64,000 bases of DNA from an uncultured Planctomycetia bacterium. Lineage in GTDB: Bacteria > Omnitrophota > Gorgyraeia > 2-01-FULL-45-10. Position numbers and translations under genes: made by a program. The notes under the pieces were generated by a model. The model searched no databases. It had not been told where the DNA came from and saw nothing but the letters and a program-made list of their open reading frames with translations. Each line of letters begins with the position of its first letter. Position 1 is the stretch's first letter. Positions 5,108-43,092 of the stretch are shown one piece after another. The DNA lies in the NCBI GenBank assembly GCA_964450115.1, contig CAYVCD010000001.1:8410-72409 (forward strand), in the 5' to 3' direction.

Positions 5108-5442
5108 GGCAGGCGAGACCTTGCGGGGTGGTTGCCGGAGCGGCGTTACAAATTTCACTTCGCTCTACGCGAGAAATCCCCGAGCTCCGTGGAATTTCCT
5201 ACTTGTAAGCGAGGGAAATTTTGATACCTTATGGCAATATAGAAAGGCCGGACAAACTGCTCAAGCTATGTATGGTTGGCAGGTTGGACGGCCATCAAAA
5301 TTTGTCCGAGCAAATTTACTTGCCTAATGTAAATTTCACTTCGCTCTCCATGAGGAATCCCCGAGCTTCGTGGAATTTCCTACTCGTAAGCGAGGGAAAT
5401 TTGCGTCCGCGCAGGCAATTACCCCGCAAGGTCACCGCCTGC
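5108..5442. repeat. 335-bp TIR-flanked structured repeat element, copy A (MITE-like or structured ncRNA)
   Basis: Near-identical copy at 9245–9578. Terminal inverted repeats GCAGGCGAGACCTTGCGGGGT … ACCCCGCAAGGTCACCGCCTGC. Contains two tandem ~72-bp imperfect-hairpin units (AAATTTCACTTCGCTC…GGAATTTCC…GCGAGGGAAATTT) separated by a ~110-bp foldable spacer. Confidence 0.7.
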
Positions 5443-9244: not shown

Positions 9245-9578
9245 GGCAGGCGAGACCTTGCGGGGTAGCAGCCGAAGCGGCGTTACAAATTTCACTTCGC
9301 TCTACGTGAGAAATCCCTGAGCTCCGTGGAATTTCCTACTTGTAAGCGAGGGAAATTTTGATACCTTATGGCAATATAGAAAGGCCGGACAAACTGCTCA
9401 AGCTATGTATGGTTGGCAGGTTGGACGGCCATCAAAATTTGTCCGAGCAAATTTACTTGCCTAATGTAAATTTCACTTCGCTCTCCATGAGGAATCCCCG
9501 AGCTTCGTGGAATTTCCTACTTGCAAGCGAGGGAAATTTGCGTCCGCTGAGGCGCTACCCCGCAAGGTCCACGCCTGC
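9245..9578. repeat. 335-bp TIR-flanked structured repeat element, copy B
   Basis: Near-identical to 5108–5442 (same TIRs, same two hairpin units). The ORF-track peptides from 5221 and 9358 are almost identical for this reason. Confidence 0.7.
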
Positions 9579-9646
9579 CTGTAGTAGAACGCCAGGTATT
9601 TCAGTGAAAGATTTGACTTGGATGAGAGTGTATGCTATACTTATTA

Positions 9647-9670
9647 TACTTTAAGTAATTACTATAACTA
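9647..9670 (+). promoter_or_regulatory. conserved operator-like motif TACTTTAAGTAATTACTATAACTA (10-bp perfect palindrome AGTAATTACT) upstream of merR-like gene 1
   Basis: 21 of the 24 nt are identical to 11644–11667, upstream of the paralogous regulator. Confidence 0.45.
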
Positions 9671-9677
9671 CTACTAT

Positions 9678-9899
9678 ATGGCCAAGATCTCCGCACAGGA
9701 CGTCGTAAAGAAGTTCGGCATCAAGTACCATACCCTCAATTTCTATACCACCATAGGCTTACTGCCCCTTTCGGGAAAGAACGGCAACCAGAGAATGTTC
9801 GATGAGGACGAGATCAGGTCGAGGCTGGCCCGGATCACACGCCTTTCGCAGGAAGGCTACCCCTTGAACCTGATACGCAAGAAACTGGTGGGCGTATGA
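9678..9899 (+). CDS. short MerR-family HTH protein (BldC-like, no effector domain), paralogue 1
   Basis: 73 aa. MAKISAQDVVKKFGIKYHTLNFYTTIGLLP… matches the MerR N-terminal HTH. ATGA overlap with the downstream secretin gene. Confidence 0.6.
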   Translation: MAKISAQDVVKKFGIKYHTLNFYTTIGLLPLSGKNGNQRMFDEDEIRSRLARITRLSQEGYPLNLIRKKLVGV

Positions 9900-11632
9900 C
9901 ATTCAAACGCTCTTATCCTATTGTAGTCTTCGCTATTCTTACTATGGCGATGGCCTTAACCTGTGCAGAGGGCGAGGAGGCGACAGCTCAAAATCCGACA
10001 CAGCCTGTCCAGGAAGCGACTACCGCGGTAAGGGGTGAGAACGCCATGATATCCCTGGACTTGAAGGGGATAGACATAATAGAGCTCTTAAGGATACTAT
10101 CTCTCAAGACCGGCCTGACCATAGTCCCGACCAAAGGCGTTTCCGGCAGGGTCAACGTGTATCTCAATAATCTCACTTTCGAAGACGCCTTCAACATAAT
10201 ACTCTTAAGCCAGGACTTAGCCGCAGACAAGAAAAGCGGCGTCATAAACGTCATGACATCCGCCGAATATGAGAAGATATACGGCAGGAGGTATGCCGAC
10301 AAGAGGAAAGTCAAGATCCTGACGCTCGCTTACGCCAAGCCCTCCGTAGTATTCAATGCTCTGGGACAGCTGAAGTCCGATATAGGAAAGATCATAGTAG
10401 ATGAAGCGACCGGAACAGTATTTTTGATCGATATCCCAGAAAAACTGAAACTGATGGAAGATACCGTAAAAGACCTTGATCAGCCTCTCGATACCGCGGT
10501 ATTTGAGTTGAAATACGCTAAACCTGCGGACATAAAGGCCCATCTCTCTACGGCCATCACAGCCGGACTTGGGGAAGTATTTGTCGATGAGAAGGCCGGG
10601 AAGGTAGTAGTATCGGATCTTCCGTACAAGATAGATAAGATACGTAAGATGATAAAGTCCTTCGATTCGGCGCCTCTACAGGTATTTATAGAGGCTGAGA
10701 TATTGGAAGTCCTGCTTGATGATAAATTTGAAAGAGGCATAGACTGGGATGCGATGATATCCGGGAAGGCATGGCAGAAGTGGCTAAGGGTAGGCACCAT
10801 AGATCTAAAAGGCTTTTTCCCATCCACTCTGACTATCCCTTCTCAAAAGATTACGGTCGGCACTCTGAAGGAAACAAATTACACCTCCATTATAAGATTC
10901 CTCCAGACATACGGCGATACGAGGACTCTCTCCCGTCCGCGTCTTGCGGTAGTGGATAACCAGGAGGCCAAGATATTGGTAGGGACGAGGCAGGCTTATG
11001 TGAGCCAGACCCTGAGCCAAGGGGGGACGAGCACTACCGTAACATCGGAAAGCATCCAGTTCGTGGACGTAGGCGTTAAATTAAACGTAGCCCCATCCAT
11101 ATCGAGTGACGGATTCATAGTGATGAAGATAAGGCCCGAGGTGAGCGCGGTCGAGACCACGATCACGACATATCTCGGAAGCACCATACCTATAATAAAG
11201 ACCTCTGAAGCCGAAAGCGTCGTTAAGGTCAAGGACGGCACCATGATAATTATAGCGGGTATGATCAAAGAGGAGAACCCGGATGATATCACAGGCTGGC
11301 CATACCTGTCTAAGTTAAAAGGCGCGGGATTTTTATTTGGCAAGAGAACCGTTCAAAAAAGGCGTACCGAGCTCGTGATATTCATTACACCTCATATTAT
11401 TTCGGGCGAAGCGCCTGTGGATGATCACACGATCGAAGACCTGATGCCGGCAGAGATCGTACCGTGGGACGCGAAGAAAGACATAATAGACGATAAGATA
11501 AGGGAAGATATAAATTTTAAGAAAGAACCCAAGGCCAAAAACTATGCTCCAAAAGGTCAGGCGGCTAATTCAGGTCCGGAGAGCGGCCGAGGAGCTGTTA
11601 TGGGGAAGTCGAAAGGGGTTAAGAGTTATTGA
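9896..11632 (+). CDS. secretin (GspD/PilQ family), paralogue 1
   Basis: Signal peptide and N-terminal secretin N domains. Conserved secretin C-domain (…SRPRLAVVDNQEAKILVG…IQFVDVGVKLNVAPSISSDGFIVMKIRPEVS…GWPYLSKL…TELVIFITPHII). Confidence 0.85.
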   Translation: MTFKRSYPIVVFAILTMAMALTCAEGEEATAQNPTQPVQEATTAVRGENAMISLDLKGIDIIELLRILSLKTGLTIVPTKGVSGRVNVYLNNLTFEDAFNIILLSQDLAADKKSGVINVMTSAEYEKIYGRRYADKRKVKILTLAYAKPSVVFNALGQLKSDIGKIIVDEATGTVFLIDIPEKLKLMEDTVKDLDQPLDTAVFELKYAKPADIKAHLSTAITAGLGEVFVDEKAGKVVVSDLPYKIDKIRKMIKSFDSAPLQVFIEAEILEVLLDDKFERGIDWDAMISGKAWQKWLRVGTIDLKGFFPSTLTIPSQKITVGTLKETNYTSIIRFLQTYGDTRTLSRPRLAVVDNQEAKILVGTRQAYVSQTLSQGGTSTTVTSESIQFVDVGVKLNVAPSISSDGFIVMKIRPEVSAVETTITTYLGSTIPIIKTSEAESVVKVKDGTMIIIAGMIKEENPDDITGWPYLSKLKGAGFLFGKRTVQKRRTELVIFITPHIISGEAPVDDHTIEDLMPAEIVPWDAKKDIIDDKIREDINFKKEPKAKNYAPKGQAANSGPESGRGAVMGKSKGVKSY

Positions 11633-11643
11633 TATAATTGCTG

Positions 11644-11667
11644 TACTTTAAGTAATTACTTTAACTA
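11644..11667 (+). promoter_or_regulatory. conserved operator-like motif TACTTTAAGTAATTACTTTAACTA upstream of merR-like gene 2
   Basis: Paralogous to 9647–9670. Followed by a hairpin CCCCGCA…TGCGGGG overlapping the RBS region. Confidence 0.45.
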
Positions 11668-11717
11668 CATAACCCCGCACCTTCTTAATGGAGATGCGGG
11701 GAGGAGAAGGTGCGGTC

Positions 11718-11939
11718 TTGAAGAAGATCTCGGCTCAGGACATAGTGAAGAAGTTCGGCATCAAGTACCACACCCTTAACTATTACACTACGATGGGGCT
11801 ATTGCCCCTTTCGGGTAAGAGCGGCAATAGGCGTATGTATGACGAGAACGAGATACGGACGAGGCTTGACGATATCATGCGCCTTTCGCAGGAAGGTTAC
11901 CCTTTGAACCTTATACGCAAGAAGCTGGTGGGGATATGA
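11718..11939 (+). CDS. short MerR-family HTH protein (BldC-like), paralogue 2
   Basis: TTG start with an AGGAGAAGG RBS gives a 73-aa protein colinear with paralogue 1 (MKKISAQDIVKKFGIKYHTLNYYTTMGLLP…). The longer ATG 11688 start would add an unmatched extension. Confidence 0.55.
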   Translation: MKKISAQDIVKKFGIKYHTLNYYTTMGLLPLSGKSGNRRMYDENEIRTRLDDIMRLSQEGYPLNLIRKKLVGI

Positions 11940-12772
11940 GCTATTTTAAGATATTAGGATTGGACAGGGAGCCTTTTTCCACGAGCCCCGACCCCGCCTT
12001 CTTCTATGAATCGCAGGAGCACCACGCCGCTCTCATGAGGCTCATGATAGAGATACGTTTGAAGAGGGGCTTAAGCCTTATACTCGGAGACGTGGGGACT
12101 GGGAAGACGACGCTTTCGCGCAAACTCTTCCAGATGCTGAAGGAACGCACCGACATAATATTCCATATGGTGATGGACCCTACCTATGATAGCGAGAAGT
12201 TGCTGCTCGAATCTCTTATTCGTACATTCGGCATAGATATGGGCCCGGGGCCCGATCGTTCGATATTGGATTATAAGGAAGAGATAAAGAAGTATCTGTA
12301 CAGAACGGCGGTTGAGGAGAATAAGATAGTGGTCCTCCTGGTGGACGAGGCGCAGAAGCTGAATGCGATGTCGCTGGAGATCTTAAGGGTAATGCTCAAT
12401 TATGAAACCAATGAATTTAAGCTCCTGCAGGTGGTCTTGCTGGGCCAGCTTGAGCTTTTACCGCGCCTAAGAGAGATAAATAATCTATGGGACAGAATAA
12501 GCTTGAAGTACATGTTGAACCCGCTGGATGAAGAAGAGACTAGACAGATGATAGATTTCAGATTAAAGGCGGCGGGCTATAATTCACGTGTGGAATTTTT
12601 CACCGATGAGGCGATAAAAGAGATATATCAATACACCCAGGGGTATCCGAGGCGCATATCTATGCTATGCCATAACGCGCTTAAGGCTCTAGTTATGGTG
12701 AATAAGCCTATAGTGGATGTGAATATAATCCGCGACATAATGAGTAAGGATATATGGCAAAAGACGACATGA
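11936..12772 (+). CDS. ExeA/GspA-like AAA ATPase (secretin-assembly ATPase)
   Basis: N-terminal LGLDREPF motif typical of ExeA. Walker A GDVGTGKT. Walker B VLLVDEAQ. ATGA overlap with the merR-like gene. Confidence 0.7.
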   Translation: MSYFKILGLDREPFSTSPDPAFFYESQEHHAALMRLMIEIRLKRGLSLILGDVGTGKTTLSRKLFQMLKERTDIIFHMVMDPTYDSEKLLLESLIRTFGIDMGPGPDRSILDYKEEIKKYLYRTAVEENKIVVLLVDEAQKLNAMSLEILRVMLNYETNEFKLLQVVLLGQLELLPRLREINNLWDRISLKYMLNPLDEEETRQMIDFRLKAAGYNSRVEFFTDEAIKEIYQYTQGYPRRISMLCHNALKALVMVNKPIVDVNIIRDIMSKDIWQKTT

Positions 12773-13380
12773 CGCCTGAAGAGAGGCTTTTGAAGATAAT
12801 CGAGAATCCGAACACCCCGAAGCGCCAGGAGTCTTTGGCCGCCAAAGTGAGATCGTTCGATCCCGGATCTATAAAGGAATGGTTCTCCGGCATTCGCATG
12901 GATAAGGACCTTCTTAAAAAGATAAACCTAAAGGCGATCAATAAGATAATAGCCGTAATATGCGCCCTCATTACCTTAATATGGATATTCGATTTTGGCA
13001 GGGGTGGCATAGCGCTGGCAAAGCGTTTTAAGAAGATCTCCTCCGGCGAATCTCTCGTTTCGTCGGATGAAGGTAAGTGGCCTAAAATAGACGTTACTAT
13101 AACAGATGCCACAATACAGGCAAGAAAACGGAATATATTTACATTTCTGCCTACAAAAGAAGAGGCAGCTTCTGCGGTAAGCGTGGGGCCGACATTGGGC
13201 AATTTTAAACTTGTCGGTATACTGTGGAGCGATAACCCGCAGGCGATGATAGAAAATTCGCAAGAGCAGAGAACATACTTCGTTTCAAACGGAGATAAGA
13301 TAGGCGAGCTGACTGTAAAAAAGATCCTAAGGGACAAGGTAATGCTTGGTAAAGATGATCAGGAGTGGGAGTTAAGATGA
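12754..13380 (+). CDS. single-pass membrane protein with C-terminal GspB/GspC/PilP-like HR domain
   Basis: One TM (IIAVICALITLIWIF). The C-terminus (FKLVGILWSDNPQAMIENSQEQRTYFVSNGDKIGELTVKKILRDKVML) matches the secretin-interacting HR/PilP pattern. Overlaps both neighbouring genes. Confidence 0.45.
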   Translation: MAKDDMTPEERLLKIIENPNTPKRQESLAAKVRSFDPGSIKEWFSGIRMDKDLLKKINLKAINKIIAVICALITLIWIFDFGRGGIALAKRFKKISSGESLVSSDEGKWPKIDVTITDATIQARKRNIFTFLPTKEEAASAVSVGPTLGNFKLVGILWSDNPQAMIENSQEQRTYFVSNGDKIGELTVKKILRDKVMLGKDDQEWELR

Positions 13381-15104
13381 GGCGAATATTATCGATATTG
13401 ATAATCGTCGTTTTCGTCTCCTCGTTCGTATATTGCGAGGAACCTACGCAAGAGTCCGAGTTGAAGGTTAGCGAAAAAGACTCCATGATATCCCTCGACC
13501 TAAAGGGTATAGATATAGTAGAACTCCTAAGAATACTCTCTCTCAAGACCGGCCTTACCATAGTCCCCACAAAGGGCGTATCTGGCAGGGTCAACATATA
13601 TCTCAACAATCTCTCATTTGAGGACGCCTTTAATATCATTCTCCTGAGCCAGGACCTTGCCGCGGACAGGAAGGGCAGTGTGATAAATGTCATGACATCC
13701 CCAGAATACGAAAAACTATACGGCAGGAAATATACCGACAAAAGAAGGGTCAGGCGCTTAAAGTTAAATTATGCTAAACCCTCTGTAGTATTCAACGCGC
13801 TCGGCCAGCTGAAATCCGATGTCGGCAAGATAATCGTGGATGAGGCGTCCGGGACGATAATACTTATCGATATCCCGGAGAAATTAAAGCTGCTGGAAGA
13901 AGCCGTGAAGAAGCTCGACCAGCCTCTCGATACGGAAACTTTCGAACTAAAATACGCCAAGCCCGCGGATATTAAGGCTCAGCTTTCATCGGCTATTACC
14001 CCGGGGCTCGGCGAGGTCTTTGTAGATGAAAAAACGGGCAAGGTCATAGTCTCGGATATGCCCGACAAGATAGCTAAGATCAGGCGCATGGTGAGAGCTT
14101 TCGACTCCGCGCCTTTACAGGTATTTATAGAGGCCGAGATAGTGGAGCTATTGCTTAATGATGAATTCCAACGCGGTATAGATTGGACCAAGGTCTTTGG
14201 AGAAGAGCAATGGATGAAGTGGTCCAAGCTTTTAGGCCTTTCTTTGGTAGGGGCATTTCCCGCGGTTCCTACTCTTGCGGCAGCTTTCCAGAAAGTCACT
14301 GTTGGAACGCTCGCTGCCAACAAATATACAGCCACATTAAAATTCCTCCAGACATACGGTAAGACGAGGACCCTCTCCCGTCCGCGTCTGGCGGTAGTGG
14401 ATAACCAGGAGGCTAAGATATTGGTAGGTAAGCGCGAAGCCTATGTGAGCCAGACTTTGAGCCAGGCGGGAACGGGTACCACCGTGACATCAGAGAGCAT
14501 ACAGTTCGTGGATGTCGGAGTGAAGCTTAATGTGGTGCCGTCCATCTCAAGCGACGGCTTCATAGTGATGAAGATAAAGCCCGAAGTCAGCTCGGTCGAG
14601 ACCACGATTGTTACATCCCTGGGGAGCCGTATACCTATAATCAAGACTTCGGAAGCCGAAAGTGTCGTTAAGGTCAAAGATGGCACTATGATAATGATAG
14701 CGGGCCTGATGAAAGAGGAGAATATCGACAGCATAACAGGCTGGCCATACTTGTCCAAAATGAAAGTGCTTGACGCTGCATTTGGGAACAGGACGACTAC
14801 AAAAAAGAATACAGAACTTATAATATTTATTACTCCTCGTATCATAACGGGCGAAGCGCCCGTAGAGGATAATGAGCTCGAAACGCTGATGCCGGCAAGC
14901 ATCATACCGAAGGATCTCAAGGAAGATATAATAGACGATAAGATAAAGAAAGATATAAATCTGAAGAAAAGAGAGAAAATGGGGACAGCGCCCCTTTTAG
15001 ACAAAAGCTATTTGAGTGCTAAAAAGGGCGCTGTCCCCATTTCTGAAAAGTCCGGCGTTAGCTTCGCCGACAAGATGAAAGGAATTAAAAAATATGAAAA
15101 ATAA
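13377..15104 (+). CDS. secretin (GspD/PilQ family), paralogue 2
   Basis: About 70% identical in translation to 9896–11632. ATG 13377 with an AGGAGT RBS gives a signal peptide MRRILSILIIVVFVSS. Confidence 0.85.
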   Translation: MRRILSILIIVVFVSSFVYCEEPTQESELKVSEKDSMISLDLKGIDIVELLRILSLKTGLTIVPTKGVSGRVNIYLNNLSFEDAFNIILLSQDLAADRKGSVINVMTSPEYEKLYGRKYTDKRRVRRLKLNYAKPSVVFNALGQLKSDVGKIIVDEASGTIILIDIPEKLKLLEEAVKKLDQPLDTETFELKYAKPADIKAQLSSAITPGLGEVFVDEKTGKVIVSDMPDKIAKIRRMVRAFDSAPLQVFIEAEIVELLLNDEFQRGIDWTKVFGEEQWMKWSKLLGLSLVGAFPAVPTLAAAFQKVTVGTLAANKYTATLKFLQTYGKTRTLSRPRLAVVDNQEAKILVGKREAYVSQTLSQAGTGTTVTSESIQFVDVGVKLNVVPSISSDGFIVMKIKPEVSSVETTIVTSLGSRIPIIKTSEAESVVKVKDGTMIMIAGLMKEENIDSITGWPYLSKMKVLDAAFGNRTTTKKNTELIIFITPRIITGEAPVEDNELETLMPASIIPKDLKEDIIDDKIKKDINLKKREKMGTAPLLDKSYLSAKKGAVPISEKSGVSFADKMKGIKKYEK

Positions 15105-15465
15105 TATGCTTATGGTATCGATCTTAGTCGTCTCTCTGTCGTTTGCGGGATGCGCAAGGGTGCTGCCGAAGCGGATAAGCGTACAGGAGTCGGCCGCGGA
15201 AAAGGGCGCGCTCTATGAAGAGCTGGGGACCGCTTATACGAAGGCCGGCCTCTATGATGAGGCTATAGAAGCCTATAAGAATTCCCTTGTATGTGATCCT
15301 AATAACGCGGATATACATTATTATCTGGGCCTGCTTTACCAGAAGTCGAATAAAGATGTGGAGAAGGCGGTATTCCATTTTAAGAGGTACCTGTACCTGA
15401 AGCCGGACGCCAAGAACAGAGAAGATGTAAGGTACCTGATCGAGATGGTGCTGAATAAAAGATAG
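15094..15465 (+). CDS. TPR-repeat lipoprotein (PilF/PilW/pilotin-like candidate)
   Basis: Lipobox LSFAGC. Two or three TPR motifs (AYTKAGLYDEAIEAYKNSL…IHYYLGLLYQK). Sits directly after a secretin gene. Confidence 0.55.
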   Translation: MKNNMLMVSILVVSLSFAGCARVLPKRISVQESAAEKGALYEELGTAYTKAGLYDEAIEAYKNSLVCDPNNADIHYYLGLLYQKSNKDVEKAVFHFKRYLYLKPDAKNREDVRYLIEMVLNKR

Positions 15466-15476: not shown

Positions 15477-16061
15477 ATGGGCAAGAATAAACAGTCGGCG
15501 ATCAATTTACCTATCATCCTTTCAATAGTTTTGGCTGTGATCCTGTCGGTATCTTTATGGCAGAATCACAGGGCAAGGATATACGAGGCTATCCTCGAAA
15601 AGAACATATTCTTGCTGAATGAAAATCTTATGCAATATCAGAGGTCGGATAAAGAGATGGTCTTTGGCGCGGACAACGAAGCGGCATCATACCTTAAGTG
15701 GAAGTTCGTTCTTAAAGAACAGGTGGATCAGACCACCCAGATATTCAGCGACAAAGCGGCTGCGTTAAAGAATGCCGGCAAAGATAAGGTCCTCGCTTCG
15801 CTTTTATACTACAACGCTGGATTGGCCCAGACTGTCAATTCAGACTTCTCATCCGCAATAGCGGCTTTTGAAGAAGCAGTAAGACTCGATCCTAAAAATG
15901 GTTACGGCTATTACAATCTAGGCATGCTCTACTGGGCATACGGTAAGAATAAAGCCAAAGCGCTCCATTGTTATAAAAAATATATGGAGATATTTCCGAG
16001 AGGTATTTATTCTGGCGTAGTCAAGGCCAGGATCGATCAACTAGAGGAGCTTAAACGATGA
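15477..16061 (+). CDS. membrane-anchored TPR-repeat protein
   Basis: N-terminal TM (LPIILSIVLAVILSVSLW). C-terminal TPR (…YYNAGLAQ…AFEEAVRLDPKNGYGYYNLGMLYWAYG…). Confidence 0.5.
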   Translation: MGKNKQSAINLPIILSIVLAVILSVSLWQNHRARIYEAILEKNIFLLNENLMQYQRSDKEMVFGADNEAASYLKWKFVLKEQVDQTTQIFSDKAAALKNAGKDKVLASLLYYNAGLAQTVNSDFSSAIAAFEEAVRLDPKNGYGYYNLGMLYWAYGKNKAKALHCYKKYMEIFPRGIYSGVVKARIDQLEELKR

Positions 16062-16768
16062 AGAATAAAGCATATGTAATAGCCATAGCCGCGCTGGCGG
16101 CGATCTTAGCGCTGGCATCCATCTTTTTCATACTGCACGCGAATAAATTAAAGAGTCAGATCAGCCAGAATAAGAATGCTATCCGGAACATAGAATCTGA
16201 ACTCTCCCGCGCGCGTGAAGAGAAGGAGAACATAACAAAGGCCAATGAGAAGCTCCAGGCCGATAGCGTATCCTATCTTGCTATAAATTCTAAGCTTGGT
16301 GATGAAAAGGAAGAGCTTAAGACCAGGCTTGATAAAGTCCAGAAGACTATAGATACGAAAGAAGCAAACCTTCAGAGGGTTCAGCAGAGGTTGGATGAGA
16401 TAGAAAAAGCTGCGGCCGCAAATAAGAAGGCCGAGGATGAAAAGCTGGCAAAAGATAAGAAGGTGCTGGAAAAGAAAGTTTTAAAGACCGCCTCGGCTAT
16501 AAAGAAAGAGAGGGGCGTTTATCATTACAATCTTGGCGTAGCGTACGCGCAGGCAAAGTTCTACGGCGAAGCGATCGAAGAATATGAAAAATCTATCAAG
16601 TTTGCCCCCGAAAACGCCGATACCTATTATAACCTCGGCGTATTATATGAAACCGTAGAGGCTGATACCGAAAAGGCTATAGCTAATTACAGGAGATACC
16701 TTGAGCTTAATCCAGCGCCAGAAGATATTGATGAGATCCGAGAGCGGATAAAGAGATTGGGCGGCTAG
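16058..16768 (+). CDS. membrane-anchored coiled-coil / TPR protein
   Basis: N-terminal TM, long coiled-coil, C-terminal TPR (YHYNLGVAYAQAKFYGEAIEEYEKSIKFAPENADTYYNLGVLYE). Confidence 0.5.
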   Translation: MKNKAYVIAIAALAAILALASIFFILHANKLKSQISQNKNAIRNIESELSRAREEKENITKANEKLQADSVSYLAINSKLGDEKEELKTRLDKVQKTIDTKEANLQRVQQRLDEIEKAAAANKKAEDEKLAKDKKVLEKKVLKTASAIKKERGVYHYNLGVAYAQAKFYGEAIEEYEKSIKFAPENADTYYNLGVLYETVEADTEKAIANYRRYLELNPAPEDIDEIRERIKRLGG

Positions 16769-16777
16769 AGACTCTAA

Positions 16778-17065
16778 ATGCGAAATAATCTTTCGGTAGT
16801 GATCATCACCATTATAATTCTGCTGATGTCGGCCGGCATATATCTTTCTATAGATAGTTATGGTTTAAAGAGACGCATTGCGGAAAAGGAGAGAGAGTTC
16901 ATCGCCAGAATATCCGAGGAGCGCGATATATTAAAGAAGAGCTTGCAGGAGAGATACGGTGCGAGTATGGCATCTTACGAAGAGATGTATAAAATGATGG
17001 AAGCCCAGAAGAAAAAAGTTCGCGAAATAGAAGATAAGCTCCGAAAGACCGACGGCAATAGTTAG
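16778..17065 (+). CDS. small membrane-anchored coiled-coil protein
   Basis: N-terminal TM plus a coiled-coil. Shares a C-terminal motif (RYGASMASYEEMYKMMEAQKKKVREIEDKLRK) with the C-terminus of the 17374 protein. Confidence 0.4.
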   Translation: MRNNLSVVIITIIILLMSAGIYLSIDSYGLKRRIAEKEREFIARISEERDILKKSLQERYGASMASYEEMYKMMEAQKKKVREIEDKLRKTDGNS

Positions 17066-17092: not shown

Positions 17093-17120
17093 TTGACTAT
17101 TTTTAAAGGCGTGATATACT
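17093..17120 (+). promoter_or_regulatory. putative sigma70 promoter (TTGACT –16– TATACT)
   Basis: Hexamers at 17093–17098 and 17115–17120. Would start a transcript near 17128. Confidence 0.4.
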
Positions 17121-17127
17121 TATAGTA

Positions 17128-17314
17128 GAAATAAATAGAAGTCGAAAATGGCAAACCTGGGGTGACCCAGGGACGCCCGCCTGCCCGCATGTTTTGAGGC
17201 AGTCGGGACTGTCCGCCAGCAGGCGGGCAGGCAAAGTCGTGCATCCTGATGTAAGGAAAGGCAGACTGCCGATGTGGGAGTAGAACCCAGGTCAGTTTGC
17301 CTGGGATTTTTTTT
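17128..17314 (+). ncRNA. candidate ~185-nt structured small RNA (promoter-to-terminator unit), family unknown; could instead be the hairpin-rich 5' region of the RAYT-like gene
   Basis: Hairpins CCTGGG-GTGA-CCCAGG, a 10-bp stem GCCCGCCTGC…GCAGGCGGGC, and a possible 5'/3' closing stem GGCAAACCTGGG / CCCAGGTCAGTTTGCC. Ends in an intrinsic terminator at 17286–17314. No ORF. Confidence 0.3.
17286..17314 (+). terminator. rho-independent terminator (CCCAGG-tcagtttg-CCTGGG + T8)
   Basis: 6-bp GC stem, 8-nt loop, then ATTTTTTTT. Confidence 0.55.
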
Positions 17315-17373: not shown

Positions 17374-18372
17374 ATGTCTAGAGTGCCACGCATATACATA
17401 GAAAATGCGGTATGTTACATCACCTCCAGAGGTGACCATGAAGGAGCTATATTTAAGGAGGATGGTGACTACAAGGCTTATATGGAGTTATTGAAAAAGA
17501 CAAAAGATCAGTTTAAATTTAAGCTCTTTGCGTTTTGTCTGCTTCCGAATCATGCGCATCTGCTCATTGAGCCTGATGAAGAGAGCACAATATCGCAGAC
17601 GATGCATGGGTTAAGCTCAAATTACACGAAGTATTTTAATGGCAAATATAAGAGTAGCGGACATCTTTTTCAGGAAAGATACAAGATGGCTCTCGTAGAA
17701 AAAGATCCCAATATCGCTAATATGACCGCATATATTAACCTGAATCCAAAAGCCGTGGGAGTCACCTCAGAACCAAAGAGTTATCAGTATTCAAGTTATC
17801 CGTCTTACCTATATTATGGCGGGAGTAAGGGAAGTTTAATTGGCATTCCGGTAATATCGATCGAGAAAGAAGTGCGGGAGGTGTCGACGCACCTTAACGG
17901 AAGAAGATACGAAGATTATGTTAATAGTATATCATCGGAAGTCCTGCAGAATATCGGTAAGGAATTATCCAAAAAACCTATCATAGGATCAGATGAATTC
18001 GTTACAAGAGTAAAGTCAAAGATAGAGAGCGAAAAGCTAAAAGCTGAAACAGAAAAAGCTGGGGCCGGCGCGGTGGCCAGGAACAGTAAGAGATTTATCA
18101 TTGTCTCCGGAATCGTTATCGCTGTATTGGGACTATTGACTTTTTACCTATATTCAAGAACCATTTCTTTTAAGAGCACTCTTAAGAACAGGGAAGTAGA
18201 GCTCAGGCTGGGAGCGGTAAAGGCCAGGGGAGAGATAAAGAAAGATTTGAATGAAAGGTACCATGCTGACATGGTCTCTTATGAAGCGATGACAAAGAGA
18301 CTTGAGATAGAGAAGAAGAGGGCGGTGGAGTTGGAAAATAAATTGAAAGCTGAAGGCGCCCCAAAGATCTGA
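17374..18372 (+). CDS. RAYT/IS200-like Y1 (HUH) transposase domain fused to a C-terminal membrane-anchored coiled-coil region
   Basis: N-terminal ~140 aa match COG1943/RAYT: YHxxxRG (CYITSRGDHEGAIF), HUH motif LPNHAHLLIEP, catalytic Tyr context AYINLNPKAVGV. C-terminal TM (FIIVSGIVIAVLGLLTFYLY) plus a coiled-coil. GGAG RBS. Confidence 0.6.
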   Translation: MSRVPRIYIENAVCYITSRGDHEGAIFKEDGDYKAYMELLKKTKDQFKFKLFAFCLLPNHAHLLIEPDEESTISQTMHGLSSNYTKYFNGKYKSSGHLFQERYKMALVEKDPNIANMTAYINLNPKAVGVTSEPKSYQYSSYPSYLYYGGSKGSLIGIPVISIEKEVREVSTHLNGRRYEDYVNSISSEVLQNIGKELSKKPIIGSDEFVTRVKSKIESEKLKAETEKAGAGAVARNSKRFIIVSGIVIAVLGLLTFYLYSRTISFKSTLKNREVELRLGAVKARGEIKKDLNERYHADMVSYEAMTKRLEIEKKRAVELENKLKAEGAPKI

Positions 18373-18382: not shown

Positions 18383-21300
18383 ATGATCTATATGAAAAGC
18401 TTAAAAGGTAATGCTATAGTATCGGGGTGTTTTAAACTCGCGTTTATCGCATTCCTTATGACAGGCCTATGGACCAGCACTACCGCGAGCAACCCGGATT
18501 ACTACGAGTGGACGCAGAACAACTGGAACAGCAGCGCCAATCCGGCAGCGCAGGGTTCCCACCCCGGTAGCCAGACCGGCTGGACCAATTATTTTAGTAA
18601 AGACACGCCCCTTGGCATAGATACTTCCAGCGGCAAGGTGAAGCTAGCAACACTACCGTATACAATTACGAATACGACGCCAACCGATTTTAATTCCACT
18701 GAATTTCAGAATATAGAAAAAGTGAGCGATGGAAATGGAGCGTTGAGGCTCTTACCTACTATTAATGACCCCTTTGCAAATAATGAACTTCGTAAATGGA
18801 GAGCGCTTCCGAGCACTCCTTATTTTAATGCCAATACCAGATTTACGCGTATGGGTGATTATATATACTCCATATTCGTCTCCGGAGACGGCAAGCAGTT
18901 TGGCCGTATAAAAGTAAGCGACATATCGGATCCTGCCATTCTTCCAAAATGGCAATTTTTGACTTCTCTGCCCGTTCCATTAGGCGCCGGCGCGGCGATA
19001 ACCAACGATGGCCAGTATATATTCGTCCTGCGCGGCGGTGGTTCCAACGCGGCTTATTTTTATCTGCCTCCGGAAGGAACTAACCCCGGAACTAATCCAT
19101 TCACCACGGCTGACAATCCAATAACTTTACCTGTGGCAGGAAGCGAGGATCCCGTTCTTGCATGGCCTAAATTCTCTAGTTTGTCTGAAGGTGCCCAGAA
19201 AGGATCGTCGGTGATTCATGTTGGTACGATAGCCGATCGTTTCGCAAAAGTGGCGGATAGAGGACAGTTGTATGCTGTGTCAGGTGGCAATAGAACGGGT
19301 TTTTTTTACTACGACACATTTAACAAGGAATGGAGAAGGTTCACTAATCCGTCAAGAGCGGCTGTGAATGTTGGAGCCACGCTTATCCATAGAGGCGGCG
19401 ATTCTGTTTATCTGGTATTTGGAGACGGCTATAATGGCCGTATAGATAGATTTAGCAGAAGTTCTGGGACATGGTCTAATGCCTCCAGTAATACGTTTTT
19501 TCCCAAAGATCCGAATTTAATTTCTTTTCCGACTCTATGGGAAGGCTCTGTCTGCTCGTATCCCGGCTCAGGAGATTACGTATATGCGGCATTCTGTTAT
19601 TATACCTATATGCAGCCCTATAGATCGGGCGCCAATCACACGCTCCGGGGATTTTTTAGGTTCGGGCCGCTATCCGACCCAAATCCTACCTGGCAAAGAC
19701 TTGATGATGCGCCTGCCTGGATAGAGACTACTGCTTCGATCATCTATGACCCCGGTGCAGGAACAGGCGCTGAAGGAAATAAGTTGCATCTCTTTTCCGG
19801 TAGGAATTATACCCGGCCCTGGGTATACAAAACAGATAATCCGGACCCCTCTCAAAACCATTGGGAAACAATGTCTATGCCCTTAACTTATACAACCAAC
19901 AGCTCGATGGTCTACGTAAAAGCGGATACTTATACGGGAAATAAGGATTATATGTATATGGTCGTCAGAAACACATGGTTTCTCCGCTACGATGTTGCAG
20001 CGAATAAGTGGGATCTACTGGCATATCTACCAGAGACTGCCGGAGATCATCCCGGTAATCGCCTTACCTACTTGAATGGATATATTTATTACCTGGCGGG
20101 AAATAACAGTGCTGATCCGCTAGATGGATATAAGAGCGGATTTTACAGATATAGGGTATCTCAGACGTTGAATGGAAGCGACTCATGGGATCCAAAAACC
20201 GTCCTTCCGCAATTCCCAAGAGTGGATTTAAATACGAGCGATGCCATATTTAATAATGTAAATGCAGGCTCGGGCATTATAGGCATATCGCAGGGCGGTA
20301 GGAATTTTATATACGGCATCAGAAGTTCATCAAGCAGCTATTTTTATGCGATGGAAATTGGTGCCGACAATGCTCCCGTAGGAGGCTGGATTACCATGCC
20401 CAGCACAAGGGATAAATATAACAATTTAACCACTTTTAATACAACAAATTTGGTATACCCGGGTTATCCGGAAGACGGCGGTCAGCATACCTACATATAT
20501 GCCATCACGTACTTCAATACCGTAAGTGTCAGAAGCGGTTATTGTATATATAAGTATGGACCTATCGAACACGACACTGATACGGATCCCTCTACCGCCG
20601 CGCAATGGACCGAACTTTCGGCTACCTATCCTCACGATGTTACCACCGGACATAACATGTCCATCGCGTATCCTGGCACAGGCCAATATCTATACACAAC
20701 TACCGGTACATCAGATACATCGCTTGGCAGGTATAACATGCCTACAGGTGAATGGACCAAGCTCGATACTGTAGTACCCGTTGCCTATGAATATTACAGC
20801 CATGCTGTCGGAGGCAATAACAGCGTATACTTAACGACATATTATTCACAAAATAGTTTTTACCGTTATGATGTGACTTCGGGAAGGTGGGATGATCTGC
20901 CGATGGATCAGGGCGGTTTCTATTTCGAGGCCGGCAATGCGGTCAAGGACTCAAATAACAATGTATATTTTGTGGGGGGTAGGTCAGGTGATAATATATC
21001 CTCACATCTCTGGATATACAGTACTTCGCTAAAGAAGTGGGTTGGGCTTATGCGGGCGCCATTTCATTTGTCCAGAGGGACTAAAGCCGAATATTTGAGT
21101 GGTAAGGACAACTCTATAAATTCAATCTATGTAACAGAGGGTAGGCAGTCGAATCGGTTCTGCAAGTATAATATCACAAATGACGCTTGGAGTTTTTGCA
21201 AGCCTATTAAAACGGCTGTTACTACCGGCAGCCAGATAACTACCGATGGTATAAGCAAGATATACTTTGTGGCCGGAGGTGATGCTATCGGTAAGACAGT

Positions 21301-24300
21301 ATGGATCTACAATGCGCTTCAGGATGATGGCCAGGCGGATCCCTGGGGTGAGTTTCGCGAAAGCCTTAAGTTGCCATTTGCCTCTACCGTCACCGCGGAC
21401 TTGATGGAATATGCTCAAGGTAATCTATATTTAGTGGCGCAAAACAGTAACACCTTCTATAAGTATCAAGTTGACGGTCAGTTGTCAGGGTGGGACTCAA
21501 CAAGCCTTAGGCCTGTAGGCGATTCCGGCTCAGGAAGCACCATAGTGCCGAGCGGCGGAATATGCCTTTATTATCCCGGCGCGGGATCAAAGCTATACTG
21601 TATACCAAGAGATGGATTTAGCGATTTTCTATCCTATGATATAGGTACCGACCTATGGAGCCCTTTAAAAGAGATGCCCTGGATACCATCTGCCGGAGTG
21701 TCGGCTATAATTGACGCCGGCGAAAGTTGGGTCTATACGTATAACTCAGCCTGGCGCGACATTCTGATACGGTATGATAAGACCGATAATATTTGGGACG
21801 CCATACCTTCCATGCCCGCTGCGCTAAAAGGGAACTCTGCGTTATGTGCATACAAAGGATATGTATATATTCTTAACGGAGGCGCCGGAGACGGTTCCTT
21901 TTCCCGCTATAATACAGAAGGAGAGGTATGGGAACAGCTTCAGTCACCCTATTCTGCAAACTCATCGTTCACATTTCCGAACCAGGGTATATTTGCGCTT
22001 CCGGTAGAAAATCCTTATGATGGAAAAGCGTATATATATTTTACAGAGGGGTATGGCCTCAGCCGGTTTTTCAGATATAGTATAAACGACAACACATGGC
22101 AGACAGTGACAGCTCCGCCCGGAGGAACGACTTGGAAATACGGCAACAGTATGACTCAGGTGGGAAATTACCTCTATATTGTTGATGGCAATGGTACGAA
22201 TTTTTGGAAGTATCGTCTTGATGACTTCTACGACATGTCGTTTTCTGTTCCTCTTCCCGAGTCCGTAGGCAGGGGCGCCAGCGTCGCCTATAGCAGCTAC
22301 GATGGCCGCGTCTATTTCTTCTCCGGCGCCAGATTCTCTTATTTTTATAAATGGCTGCCGGGCGCAACGGGATGGACCCCATTAGCGAGCTGCCCCGTGT
22401 CGGTCAATGACAGCCAATCTAACCTGCTTTATCCCGGATTTGGAAAGTACCTCTATTACATACAAGGCTCATCATATGGGTATAGCGACCCTTCATCCGT
22501 TTTCCTTAGGTATAGTATGGACCCGACGACACCGGCCTCGGACAGATGGACCGAGCTTACTCCCTCTTCTTTCGGCATATATGTGCCGGGCACATTGCTT
22601 TATGCGGGAGGTCAAAATTTTTATGTTGCAAAAGGATATGATAGCGTTTTCTTGAGCAAATATTCCGCATTCTGCTTCGGTGATTATGTTTCTAAGCCGA
22701 TAGAAGTGGGAAGGCATTGCAAATGGGGCACGATAAGCTGGGATAGCATAGGGAGCGGATCGGTGGGAGTGAGCGCAAGAACAGGTAGCAAACTGCTTAA
22801 CGCTAATCTTACCGATGCTCTTGACTGGGGGCAAGTCACGAGCGTTGGAAACGGACAGAATCTATCCGATCCTTCAAGGCCGTTATCAAGCATCAAAGAC
22901 ACAGATAAATATATACAATATCGGGTAGATTTTTCCACGGATGAAACTGGCGTTGGGGTGATAATGCCTCGACTGGATGAGATAAGGATAAATTGGGAGA
23001 AATATGCCTCAGAAAAGACCCTCGTCTCGTCGCCATACAACACAGGGTGGGATAAAAACAGATTAAGAAAATTGATGTGGAATAATGCGGGCGCTCTTAT
23101 GAATCCTACAGGCAGCGAAATACGTTTTCAACTGCGTACATCAGCAAATGGCAGTGCGTGGAGCGACTGGCTGGGACCGCTCGGTACAAGGATGTCAACC
23201 TACGCCTTAAGCGATGATAGCTTATACGTGCGCTCCGGAGACATAAAGCAGCTTAATGCATCCGATAGCTGCGCCTCTCTTTATTATGAATTGGAGAATT
23301 TCAACTTCTGGCAGGATGTCGCCATAAGCAATAATGGACCCAGCAGCATAGCGGCGGGTCAGGTAGCTCTGATAGACATAAACAGTTCCGCGACGCATTT
23401 TTGGAATAATGTAGCTTCATCTGGCCAGGATATTAGATTTTTTGACGGAACGAACAAGATGTCATATTTTCTGGCAAAGTTTGATAATCAAAGTGATATC
23501 GCGCAGATAGCCGTAAAACTAAATAGTGCCATAGCGCCAGGCGCTACCATGCATGTATATATGTTTTACGGAAACGCTAGGGCGTTCTCTGAAAGTAACG
23601 ATATAATCAGAAATCTTACTGCTATTAAAACCGATCCGAGCATAAGTAATATAGGATGGTGGGATTGCGACCAGAGGATGGTCGCCTCATCGGCCTATTA
23701 CACTCCTGACTCATCAGGCATGGGCACTCGACTATATATGAGAAAGAACATTGTGGTCAAGTCTGGTGAGGGTGTGTCCGGCGGTAATGCATTTTATATG
23801 GATGGCGCAAGCGGTTACATGACAACATATCGGGTATCGAGTTCTTTCAGCTATAAAGGGCTAGACAGGACATTCTCTCTATGGATAAAGCCGGAAGTGG
23901 ATCCCTCCGGATCGTGCTTACTATCCAGCTATCCCATCAATGGATACAATTACAGGATACAGTTAAATTCGGCCAGGGAGATGACTATCTATATTTCAAA
24001 TTCAACACCCGGCACGGCATTTAAAGACTTTTCAGTAAAAGCCAATGCAAAAATTCCGGCAGATAGTAGTTGGCATAATATAGTATGGGTCTTGAAAGGC
24101 AAAAATGGAGCAATAACAGGAGCTGTCAATAACGGTGCCGGCAAGGTTCGATATACCACTTCTTCCCCCCACAGCTTAACGCCTTTTACGCCTATTTCTG
24201 TATTCGCAATGGGCGAGCCAACTTATAATACGCTGCAAACAATAACAAGCGTTCCGGATGCAACGCATTTTGATACCGCTATTGACTATGTTGCCAATGC

Positions 24301-27300
24301 AGATGTAACCGGCACTTATTGCGCCGGGGGAACGACATCTCTCTATTTAGACGGCACCCTTGTCGGCGGGCCATTTACGCACTATATTACAGATTGGAGT
24401 TATGTCGACACTTCTTTCCCCAGTGGCACTAACTATATATTCGGTAGCTATACGGACTATGATAATTCTGACAGAAGCTGGCTCTACAAGGGGTATGTCG
24501 ATAATCTATCATTTTATAATTATGCCTTTGACGAAACGTTGGCAAAATGTATGTATGCCGGAGCAAATCGAAATCTGGCCACCGTATTTTCCGGCGGTTA
24601 TACAGACAATACGGGCGCGAATCTTAAGAATACCGGAAAATTTTATACTACCAATCCCACCATAGAGCCTATTTACGGCGTCTTCTATAATTACGGTGAT
24701 GGCGATACGCTGGCGTCGTTTGTGCAGGATCCCAGCGTAAATGCACTCGGCACGAGCATAAAGTACCAAGTTTCTCCGGACGGATATAACTGGTATTGGT
24801 GGGATAGTACAGCACCTGCCGGCGGAGCCTGGGTTATTGCTTCGGGAGGGACATCACAGGCAAACGTCTATACCGAGATAAATGCTAATCTCTCGACGTT
24901 CAGGAACATAAATCTTCCCACCGGAGTTTCTGCCGCATCGGGCGATTTTTACTGGCGCGCTTATCTTATGTCCACAGACGGCGGCACGAGCAATCCTCAG
25001 CTTAGGAATGTAACGATCAACGTTACGAATGGCGCCAGCTCCTACTATACCGATCCGGCGGGCTTAAAAAATATAAATATTGAGAACGAGAATTGCGTTG
25101 CGGACAGGTGGATACAGTACAAGGCTATTCTCTATTCGGATGGGGAAAATACCCCCACACTCAACGACGTTGTATTGAGGTACATCGAGCCGTATATTAC
25201 AATAGGATCGCCCTCTGGCGGTGAAACATGGGTAGCCGCCACTACAGAAAATATAACATGGACGTCCCATGGCCTCGAGGCTACAAAAGCGGCCCCTGCC
25301 ACTCACGGAGTTCAGCTTAAATATTCTATCGATAACGGGGTCAGCTGGGTAAGCCCCGCCATCACCAATGATGCTCCCAATAGTAATACTCTCCCATGGA
25401 ATATACCATTTGATCCGTCTCCGCAGGCTCGCGTCAGCATCGCTTCCAGCGATTACCCTGTAATAACCGCCACGTCTCCGGGCTCTTTCAGAATATTGGG
25501 TATTATACTTAATCTACCCAATGGCGGGGAGATATGGGAGAGAGGGTCTCTGCATTCTATTGAATACAGAACGTCAGGTTATGGGAGCCCAAGCACCAAA
25601 TTAAAATTACAACTATCAAATGACGGCGGGCTCAGCTATAACACTACCCTGGCGCAGGAACAGACCGACGCGCCGCCATGGCAGATCCCATGGAGAATCA
25701 ATCAGTCCGCATCAGACAACATTAAGCTTAGAATATACGATGCAAATCCTGTTTTCTGCACACCATCGATAAGGATAGTTGATGAAAGTAACAGCTTATT
25801 CAGCATAGTAGAACCTCCCAAAATAATAATAGACAGAGTGATGAAGGTTCCGGAGGAGGAAGTTATCGACGGAAAGATGATAGCAGGAAAAAGATATAGA
25901 ATAGAATGGCATACCACATCACAACACTTCGCCGAAAATTTTATACTCGAGTACTCCAAGGACAATTTTGCGACACCCGGCATTTCTATTGGCACGGCCG
26001 CATCCGGCGTGTCGGGCGGAGTATTTCCTGCTCCCGCATCGCAACTTCAGTGCAATTATGTATGGCTGGTAATTCCCTATGACATAGCGGATATCAAATT
26101 AAAGATAAGAGAAGATCCTGCTACTGTGCCGTCTCAGAGAGACACACCGGCCCCGCAAGAAGCGACAATAGCTTTGAGTATTATAGAGCCGTATTTTACT
26201 ATTGTAAGGCCCAATGCAGGCGAAATATTTGTCAGTGGTGACAAAGAAAAAATTACTTGGACCACGACTGGTAGTGTCACAGGGCCGTTTAAACTTGAAT
26301 ATTGCACAGATTATAACGAAGTCGATCCGGGCGCATCCAGCTGGATGACTATTGAGACAAATACTGCATATCCATACTTGCCCGGAAGCATACCGCCCGA
26401 TGTGCGTGAATATATATGGCCGGTACCTATTGTCACGCAGGACAAAGAAAATTGTCGCATCAGGATCACTGATATCAGTACTAATACGATAACTGATATG
26501 TCTGATGTCAGCTTTAAGATTATTTCGCATGAAAAGATAGCTATAACGACTCCTGATGGAGGCGAAGAATGGGTTATGGGAGTGCCTTACAATATAACAT
26601 GGGGTGCAAACGGCCAGAGCGTTCTTAGTAAACAGTCACCTGTCTATGTTTATCTGTATTATTCCACAGATGATGGGAAGACATACAATGAAATACCGGA
26701 GATCGGTCCACAGGTTGCATGGAAAGAGTCGTGCGAATGGACACCGGAATTACCCGTTTCTACTACGAAAGCTAAAATAAAAATAGAGGCTCTTGATTTG
26801 AATGCTCATCCGTATCTTGTGGATGCGTCTGAGGGAGTCTTCAGTATAAAAGATCCCAGCATAAGCCGCATATGGTTGGAGCATGACGGAACAGAGGTAG
26901 CGTCGGCTTATGCTACCGGTAATTACGATATAAGATGGGAGAGCTATGGCGCTGTAAGCAATAATATTAAGATTGAGTATAGGCTCAATGGCGCCGCATG
27001 GCAAACATTAACAGCATCTACGACAACACAGGAAGGCAGCGCCAGGCTAAAGCCGTGGGAGATCCCTAAGTCCGACGGAGCGCTGCTGGAATTTAAAATG
27101 ACAGATAATAACAGGGCGTCTGTTGTAAAAATATCGGACGTATTCAGCATAACAAAACCTGTTATTAACATAACTGCGCCTGCCGCTGATTTCCCATGGG
27201 TAGTAGGATTATCCGGTACGGTGAGCTGGACCACTCAAGGTGGGGATTTCCAGGCCATCAAAAGATTAAAAGTGCAGTGCATTGCCGATGCCACCCATAC

Positions 27301-35530: not shown

Positions 35531-35547
<17 letters not shown>
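34054..35547 (+). CDS. atpA: F-type ATPase alpha subunit
   Basis: P-loop GDRQTGKTSIAIDAIL. …AYRQISLLMERPPGREAYPGDIFYVHSQLMERA…. Confidence 0.9.
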
Positions 35548-39443
<3,896 letters not shown>

Positions 39444-39500
39444 CAGAACTGAAAGATTAGTAGGGCAGGTTTAAACCTGCCCTACCGATGTGAATAACTT

Positions 39501-42683: not shown

Positions 42684-42690
42684 GACCGAT

Positions 42691-43092
42691 TTGTATAAAA
42701 GATCCGCGTTTTCCATGATCGAGCTGATGGTGGCAGTTTCCGTGCTATCGATAGGAGTTATTTTGATAGCTCGATCATTCCTTTCCGCCTCAGGTGCCTT
42801 ATCAAGCTGTGAAAGCAGGATAGTGGCATTAAACTTTCTTGAAAGTAAGATGGCCGAAGTCGAAGAGAAGGCGCTGAACGGCGACGATGATCTAGCCGGC
42901 CCCGGCGAATCGGTGTCGATAAACGGAAGGAAGGCCGATTTTAGTTCCAGCTCACAGGAGATTAAGATAGGCAAAGACGAGGATAAGCTGTTTATCAATG
43001 AGGTAATGCTGAAAGTAAGCTGGCGTGAAGCCAATAGGCCTTATGACGAAGAACTGGGGACGTATGTTGAGATCGGGAAGAATGAAAAGTAA
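42691..43092 (+). CDS. minor pseudopilin (prepilin-type N-terminal methylation domain), GspI/H-like
   Basis: TTG start gives leader MYKRSA|FSMIELMVAVSVLSIG with F+1 and E+5. ATG within FSMIEL would remove the leader. Confidence 0.55.
   Translation: MYKRSAFSMIELMVAVSVLSIGVILIARSFLSASGALSSCESRIVALNFLESKMAEVEEKALNGDDDLAGPGESVSINGRKADFSSSSQEIKIGKDEDKLFINEVMLKVSWREANRPYDEELGTYVEIGKNEK

Follow-up and report, generated by a model that had tools for sequence, protein, structure and literature searches.

Classical MerR proteins activate transcription from palindromes within an over-long promoter spacer, and the MerR-type repressors HspR/HAIR, GlnR/TnrA, and CvkR occupy palindromes at or near promoters. 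In the Omnitrophota, which are uncultivated, ultra-small, and probably predatory or parasitic bacteria, a secretion/pilus locus beside giant genes is central to current ideas on host attack, and we know of nothing on how that locus is controlled. Here, we analyze a 64,000-nucleotide stretch of contig CAYVCD010000001.1 from an uncultured member of this phylum (the window, to which all coordinates refer unless a locus is named), which carries two paralogous secretin modules, each headed by a gene for a 73-residue helix-turn-helix (HTH) protein and, upstream of it, by a near-identical palindrome that we propose to be an operator.

Two modules headed by an HTH gene and a palindrome

The elements of the two modules are as follows, where PWM stands for the position weight matrix described below.

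9613-9641, + strand: promoter P1, predicted and sigma-70-like, with -35 TTGACT (9613-9618), a 17-nt spacer, and the extended -10 TGcTATACT (9633-9641)
9646-9671: putative operator O1 (motif, PWM), an imperfect palindrome containing the 24-nt motif (9647-9670) and the perfect core AGTAATTACT (9654-9663)
9678-9899, + strand: HTH1, a 73-residue protein made up of a MerR-type winged-HTH domain only (open reading frame; Pfam MerR_1, 1.5e-10)
9896-11632, + strand: secretin 1, 578 residues, with an N0/STN-like domain, two Secretin_N domains, and the secretin domain (Pfam Secretin, 1e-44)
11609-11638, + strand: promoter P2, predicted, with a weak -35 TCGAAA and the extended -10 TGaTATAAT (11630-11638)
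11643-11668: putative operator O2 (motif, PWM), the second copy of the palindrome, with the 24-nt motif at 11644-11667 and the core at 11651-11660
11672-11715, + strand: GC-rich leader hairpin(s) between O2 and HTH2, CCCCGCA/TGCGGGG and GCACCTTCT/AGAAGGTGC (RNA folding)
11718-11939, + strand: HTH2, a 73-residue paralogue of HTH1 with a TTG start (open reading frame; Pfam MerR_1, 1.1e-10)
11936-12772, + strand: ExeA/GspA/MshM-like AAA+ ATPase, 278 residues, ATPase domain alone (Pfam AAA_22, 3.4e-19)
12754-13380, + strand: GspC-like protein, 208 residues, with a homology region (HR)-type domain at its C-terminus (T2SSC matches of orthologues; HR-domain profile match)
13365-15104, + strand: secretin 2, 579 residues, paralogue of secretin 1 (Pfam Secretin, 2e-43)
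15094-15465, 15477-16061, and 16058-16768, + strand: three TPR proteins, downstream operon members (Pfam TPR; synteny across loci)
16778-17065, + strand: 95-residue protein, last downstream operon member (synteny across loci)

The original prediction for this region described two paralogous secretins, each preceded by a 73-residue HTH gene. The open reading frames, the Pfam matches, and the identities of 71% between the secretins and 82% between the HTH proteins confirm the duplication. The HTH gene precedes its secretin directly in copy 1 only; in copy 2, the exeA-like gene and the gene for the 208-residue protein intervene between HTH2 and secretin 2, which the prediction had itself recorded. 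The stop codon of HTH1 overlaps the start of secretin 1 through an ATGA, and that of HTH2 likewise overlaps the start of the exeA-like gene, so that each regulator would be co-expressed with the genes it would control. The TTG start of HTH2 is conserved in a close relative (L001), where the HTH2 protein is 100% identical. A tblastn search of the window returned these two HTH genes and no third or remnant copy.

The 24-nt motif reads TACTTTAAGTAATTACTATAACTA at 9647-9670 and TACTTTAAGTAATTACTTTAACTA at 11644-11667, exactly where it had been predicted, and the two copies are identical at 23 of 24 positions. When we allowed up to three mismatches, exactly these two matches were found in the 64-kb window, with none expected from 100 shuffles. 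The bare 10-mer AGTAATTACT, searched with one mismatch, was found twice against 2.0 expected and is not significant by itself; the significance resides in the 24-mer plus its position. The perfect 10-bp palindrome noted earlier is thus present, but as the core of a larger, imperfect palindrome of ∼24-26 bp situated downstream of the -10 element. P1 is the best sigma-70-like site between 8900 and 15600 (10/12 matches plus TG), and together P1 and P2 are the two best promoter-like sites of the region. The motif starts 5 nt past each extended -10, and the palindrome center of both O1 and O2 lies 17.5 nt beyond the -10 end. Relative to the predicted promoter, the operator would therefore cover about -2 to +22, i.e., the initial transcribed region. 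The TGA stop of secretin 1 (11630-11632) falls inside the extended -10 of P2.

As the modules are paralogous, some upstream similarity is expected, and a recent tandem duplication might have left the motif behind as a neutral remnant. The comparison of the two copies speaks otherwise. Four-fold degenerate sites are identical at 12 of 25 positions in the HTH genes and 37 of 79 in the secretin genes (47-48%), which is near saturation, and the flanks of the motif are unalignable, with 10 of 33 positions identical upstream and 1 of 7 downstream. Because synonymous sites agree at 47-48% and flanks at ∼30% or less, yet the motif at 23 of 24, we conclude that the motif is under selection and is not left over from the duplication. 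Combined with its linkage to HTH genes and the PWM results given below, this refutes the neutral-remnant reading, to which we assign practically no probability.

The GC-rich leader hairpin between O2 and HTH2 (-27.3 kcal/mol, z-score -3.6) overlaps the Shine-Dalgarno region of HTH2. It arises from an indel of ∼27 nt relative to L001, and we rejected it as an attenuator since this segment is missing from that close relative and is not conserved.

The palindrome as a candidate operator of the HTH protein

To place the motif in a wider context, we compared the window with 22 Omnitrophota genome loci that carry HTH orthologues, giving 29 HTH genes in total (individual loci are denoted by L numbers). 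The palindrome core AGTArYTACT was found 17-161 nt upstream of 27 of the 29 HTH genes, a count that takes in an independent class of HTH paralogues, class B (L009, L013, L016-L018, and L020). When aligned, the 27 instances gave the consensus cAGTAsTTwTAGTAAyTACTAwAAsTa, an imperfect palindrome of ∼24-26 bp that is well conserved from position -7 to +16 around the 10-mer. Perfect palindromes of 18-24 bp occur in the orthologous loci L009, L010, L020, L064, L108, and L117, and reach 22-24 bp in the last four of these. One of the two exceptions is a distant orthologue (L022), in which the outer arms GTAGTTAT-N10-ATAACT are kept and the inner palindrome is different. The motif is kept even where the HTH proteins share just 43-65% identity.

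We then built a PWM from the Omnitrophota sites and scanned ∼290 kb of Omnitrophota DNA, which takes in the window's type II secretion system (T2SS)/type IV pilus genes and its gene for a 4250-residue protein. No other site scored above shuffle level save one in L010 (12416), which we rejected as an extra operator because it lies within a coding region and has a chance-level score. Had the motif been a generic AT-rich repeat, unrelated sites would be expected here; apart from the one in L010, those found are HTH-linked. A metagenome scan with a 23-nt degenerate pattern gave at least 120 sites. Among the matches listed, 37 sit 25-106 nt from an HTH homologue, all of them with ExeA/GspC-like/secretin synteny where the contig is long enough, and the other 82 are on contigs of low GC content (median 35%) in which no protein of the locus has a homologue. 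Long open reading frames contain 36 of these 82, for instance a uvrB segment in 18 loci, and one more site is located at a contig end. We treated the HTH-less sites as chance or unrelated matches and not as regulon members, given their unrelated AT-rich contigs and frequent location in coding sequence such as uvrB. The pattern is thus not unique in nature, and in the Omnitrophota sequences compared it is tied to the HTH gene; judged from the same sequences, it accompanies this gene and not the secretins.

Since the motif lies downstream of the predicted -10, it would be transcribed, and it could in principle affect translation or stability from within the mRNA leader, either by folding into an RNA hairpin or as an RNA site that a protein binds. 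Some orthologues (L009 and L010) could indeed form a 7-9-bp A/U hairpin. Our folding and alignment results argue against such a role. The copy 1 leader is nearly unstructured (minimum free energy -0.5 kcal/mol, z-score +1.3), other leaders have ordinary z-scores of +0.15 to -1.0, and Rfam gave no match at the motif. Across the 27 sequences, 79% of cells pair versus 77% in column shuffles, and 9 to 16 of them lack the pairs 10-29, 13-26, and 14-25. We therefore rejected an RNA element as the main explanation and hold it to be very unlikely. With sequence conserved above pairing and the hairpin unsupported, the data point to protein-DNA recognition. The PWM scores are nearly equal on both strands (33.2 on + and 33.7 on - for O1; 33.9 and 30.8 for O2), which, along with the perfect 22-24-bp palindromes of some orthologues, fits symmetric binding by a protein.

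The promoter itself, TTGACw-N16/17-TGcTATAyw, is conserved upstream of HTH orthologues, with predicted spacers of 16-18 nt and the palindrome center 17.5-35.5 nt beyond the predicted -10 end. A palindrome bound by a MerR-type protein might alternatively be an activator site inside a weak overlapping promoter (e.g., TTGCTG-N18-TAACTA in copy 2), resulting in positive autoregulation. Classical MerR proteins do activate from spacer palindromes (their symmetric binding is summarized in PMC5859096), in most loci a fairly constant 30-45 nt separates the palindrome center and the start codon, and HTH1 lacks a Shine-Dalgarno sequence, making a short or leaderless transcript conceivable. The hexamers that flank the palindrome are nonetheless poor (at most 3/6 by eye), a strong conserved TTGACA-N16/17-TGnTATAyT promoter lies upstream in most clades, and the protein lacks the coiled-coil lever used to untwist DNA, leading us to consider an activator quite unlikely. 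That the operator lies downstream of the -10 and outside the -35/-10 spacer makes repression likelier than distortion-based activation.

The HTH protein matches Pfam PF13411 (MerR_1) with 41.5 bits against a cut-off of 21.6. In profile comparisons, it matched MerR (4ua1, 1.7e-5) and SoxR (0.0025) better than BldC (6ama/6amk, E 0.57-0.58), and its similarity to HspR is weak (NCBIfam E 4e-4), below the threshold for membership. An AlphaFold model (pLDDT 90.8) aligns structurally with MtaN, SoxR, and NmlR in their DNA-binding domains, with TM-scores of 0.77-0.80 and root-mean-square deviations of 1.5-1.8 Å, and likewise with BmrR (TM ∼0.8). According to the model, the protein ends at residue 73 after a fourth helix (H63-71), leaving neither an α5 coiled-coil nor a sensor domain. 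The description of the regulators as MerR/BldC-like and HTH-only thus stands insofar as they consist of a MerR DNA-binding domain alone, but by sequence they are closer to the classical MerR/SoxR domains than to BldC, and their site is an inverted repeat. A profile search placed at least 469 clusters in this family; the best 120 are all 71-107 residues long, and the homologues that carry a source name all come from Omnitrophota/Omnitrophica. Identities of 0.84, 0.89, and 0.62 at the three codon positions indicate that the HTH gene is under purifying selection.

Taken together, these results make negative autoregulation by the HTH protein at the operator the most likely explanation, one that we regard as probable though well short of certain. 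We propose that each 73-residue MerR-domain protomer would bind one half-site of the palindrome, and that occupancy from about -2 to +22 would block initiation or promoter escape. The result would be negative autoregulation of the HTH gene plus the genes translationally coupled to it, namely secretin 1 in copy 1 and the ExeA-like ATPase, the GspC-like protein, secretin 2, and the TPR proteins in copy 2, and its purpose may be a homeostatic limit on expression of the secretin operon. We saw no terminator-like site between modules 1 and 2 on the + strand, and as nothing of this kind separates them, O2 could also serve as a roadblock to read-through from P1. The autoregulation proposed in the original prediction accordingly gains a selected, operator-like palindrome tied to HTH genes and is the best available reading, with binding by the HTH protein its presumed step.

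Several observations weigh against this proposal. The distance between the -10 end and the palindrome center varies with clade (17.5 nt in the clade of the window, 26.5 nt in L010-L020, and 35.5 nt in L003/L005), which would put the site of some lineages deep in the leader, where repression would require a roadblock. The modeled protein is a MerR-type winged HTH without a coiled-coil dimerizer, whereas palindrome binding by classical MerR proteins uses the coiled-coil. Among domain-only relatives, the one that has been characterized is the transcription regulator BldC, a monomer whose sites are direct repeats, AATTXXXX(C), which it occupies as multimers arranged head to tail (PMC5859096). The scan covered ∼290 kb and no complete Omnitrophota genome, and further regulon sites may exist. 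Finally, covariation of the recognition-helix residue (H/Q/Y) with operator bases followed no clean rule. This last point, the indirect nature of the link between HTH and site, and the absence of an obvious dimerization surface would also suit another factor (a global regulator, a sigma-associated or a nucleoid protein) or an intrinsic promoter-proximal element, with the HTH gene merely first in the operon. We find this unlikely, as the element also accompanies HTH paralogue B at the head of a different operon, stays with the HTH gene in the rearranged copy 1 of the window, and is absent from every other promoter in the DNA scanned; for an intrinsic promoter element, its variable distance from the -10 is a further objection. 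As a separate observation, the three clade-specific distances step by exactly 9 bp.

Operon history and neighboring genes

Across the loci, the conserved gene order is HTH, ExeA-like, 208-residue GspC-like, one or two secretins, TPR protein(s), a small protein, and a Y1_Tnp/RAYT-like gene of 330 residues. Direct coupling of HTH to secretin is confined to the clade of the window (window copy 1, L002, and the metagenome contigs L039 and L131, the last three with an orthologue of secretin 1), and the order secretin, HTH, exeA seen in the window recurs in L001 and L070. Judged from synteny, the ancestral unit comprised HTH, the ExeA-like ATPase, the GspC-like protein, secretin(s), and TPR proteins, and across Omnitrophota the secretin operon would ancestrally have been headed by the HTH-operator cassette. 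The label "regulator-secretin module" used in the original prediction therefore fits the derived copy 1; the ancestral unit has the ExeA-like and GspC-like genes in between. The simplest history compatible with these sequences is that the whole operon was duplicated, promoter and operator included, and that the exeA-like and gspC-like genes were then lost from the upstream copy.

Rough neighbor-joining trees place secretin 1 and its L002 orthologue as sister to secretin 2 and its L001 orthologue, and give separate origins to the tandem secretins of L005/L008 and to those of L014. By these trees, at least three independent secretin duplications took place; taken with the tandem HTH pairs of distant lineages, they suggest that selection has repeatedly favored two secretins and two regulators. 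The tandem genes outside the window are:

L005 8830-12266, L008 5713-9281, and L014 8710-12489: tandem secretin genes
L032 480-929 and L108 2327-1879: tandem HTH gene pairs in distant lineages

Both window secretins have the secretin domain PF00263 (152 and 148 bits) and two PF03958 domains, with a weak STN/N0 match. We could not assign them to GspD, PilQ, or MshL because every score fell below the NCBIfam equivalog or subfamily cut-off (for secretins 1 and 2, respectively, GspD 209 and 214 against 351, PilQ 197 and 208 against 284, and MshL 181 and 177 against 250). The ExeA-like ATPase, syntenic in 20 loci, scores 185 bits against TIGR03015, below the cut-off of 324.5. Pfam returned AAA_22-type matches only and no peptidoglycan-binding domain in its 278 residues, and hence it is ExeA/MshM-like in the ATPase part only. 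The gene between this ATPase and secretin 2 had been called gspB/pilP-like, an assignment that we replace with GspC-like on the strength of its HR domain. Of 13 orthologues, 11 match T2SSC (PF11356), the best at 2.2e-6; the protein of the window scores 17.5 bits against a cut-off of 27, and the family profile matches the GspC HR structures 3oss_C (0.0037) and 7oio_A (0.013). For the assembly ATPase of the system, no GspE or PilB equivalog cut-off was reached in NCBIfam. That the two channels have different substrates, for example a pilus and the giant protein, is speculation, for or against which we have no evidence.

Downstream of, or beside, the second module lie the following elements:

17093-17313, + strand: cyclic di-GMP-I-type riboswitch, with promoter (17093-17120), aptamer (∼17141-17271), and terminator hairpin plus T8 (17285-17313)
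17374-18372: Y1_Tnp-like gene, after the riboswitch
18383-31135: giant gene for 4250 residues, after the riboswitch
33329-44459: F-type ATP synthase genes (b/delta fusion, alpha, gamma, beta), then an MshEN-domain T2SSE/PilB-like ATPase, T2SSF, a PilM-PilN fusion, and pseudopilins

The window riboswitch scores 31 bits against RF03167 (gathering score 59), a low value caused by a GC-rich hairpin of ∼52 nt inserted in the aptamer, and the syntenic riboswitch passes the Rfam gathering score in 17 related loci (53-65 bits). It is not mentioned in the Omnitrophota papers that we searched. The Y1_Tnp ("IS200/RAYT-like") gene matches Pfam with 1.2e-14 and stays below the NCBIfam cut-off for REP_Tyr_transpos. 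It is syntenic after the secretin operon across Omnitrophota (L009-L020, L034, L056, L060, L074, L100, L104, L106, L110, and L132), and its protein continues at the C-terminus into a long extension that is homologous to the preceding small protein (16778-17065). The gene looks domesticated and non-mobile rather than like a transposase. In another Omnitrophota clade, paralogue B with its own palindrome heads an operon of this riboswitch and gene type, in the order palindrome, HTH-B, riboswitch, Y1_Tnp-like; there the Y1_Tnp-like gene is followed by a secreted protein of ∼140 residues and no giant gene. The ATP synthase and pilus gene set is probably the "symbiotic" ATPase plus type IVa pilus (T4aP) cluster of Seymour et al. 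(PMC10066038).

These neighbors allow for a bolder scheme, which we consider doubtful. The HTH protein could be an Omnitrophota-specific master switch that binds inverted repeats without a coiled-coil, a third DNA-binding mode of the MerR fold in addition to those of classical MerR and BldC, and that coordinates, with the cyclic di-GMP-I riboswitch, the secretin/T2SS-like apparatus and the operon of the Y1-transposase-like and giant proteins, the duplicated secretins being separately tunable channels.

A non-coding element of ∼335 nt occurs twice in the window (5108-5442 and 9245-9578, 95.5% identical). It carries perfect terminal inverted repeats of 16 nt, GACCTTGCGGGGTAGC (9254-9269/9554-9569), and an internal 72-nt direct repeat (9287-9358/9468-9539), and looks like a miniature inverted-repeat transposable element. 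Much of the 728-nt gap before HTH1 is taken up by one copy, which ends ∼32 nt short of the -35, and L039 has a partial relative close to its HTH gene.

Comparison with known systems

Searches of the literature returned nothing useful on regulation of secretins by MerR proteins or on expression in Velamenicoccus. The text of West-Roberts et al. 2023 (bioRxiv 10.1101/2023.11.21.568195) has no mention of MerR, a regulator, or a riboswitch, and neither a MerR-type regulator nor an operator, a secretin duplication, or a riboswitch is mentioned in the Omnitrophota locus papers (10.1101/2023.11.21.568195; PMC10066038). The locus of the window corresponds to the T2SS-like/T4aP locus that these papers describe by Omnitrophota giant genes, with its gspD-like secretin(s), GspE/F-like genes, pilins, and very long open reading frame. 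As with GspA/ExeA-GspB and GspC-GspD of the T2SS and MshL-MshM-MshN of the MSHA pilus, the locus groups the genes for an ExeA/MshM-like ATPase, a GspC-like HR protein, a secretin, and TPR proteins, and as in the MSHA system the assembly ATPase carries an MshEN domain. Unlike in the T2SS and MSHA systems, an HTH gene heads the operon, and the ATPase lacks the peptidoglycan-binding part of ExeA.

The regulator is like BldC of Streptomyces (PMC5859096) in being a tiny MerR-type winged HTH alone (73 residues, 68 in BldC), with no coiled-coil and no effector domain, and differs from it in its site, which is an inverted repeat of ∼24-26 bp with no 9-bp direct AATTNNNNC periodicity. With classical MerR proteins (MerR, SoxR, CueR, and MtaN/BmrR), it shares the DNA-binding fold and an operator palindrome of about two helical turns. 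It departs from them in having no α5 coiled-coil dimerizer and no sensor domain and, going by the predicted promoters, in an operator that lies beyond the -10 instead of in a 19-20-bp -35/-10 spacer. HspR, GlnR/TnrA, and CvkR, which share the proposed mode of action, keep C-terminal dimerization or regulatory regions.

The regulator and its operator appear not to have been described before. They would be a phylum-specific addition to a familiar class, that of a small autoregulated transcription factor with its operator, in an unusual combination of architecture and site. The 73-residue protein, the 26-bp site, and the defined promoter geometry offer a concrete handle on the control of the locus, and if a domain-only MerR protein truly binds an inverted repeat here, the DNA-binding repertoire of the MerR fold would be extended beyond that of classical MerR proteins and BldC.

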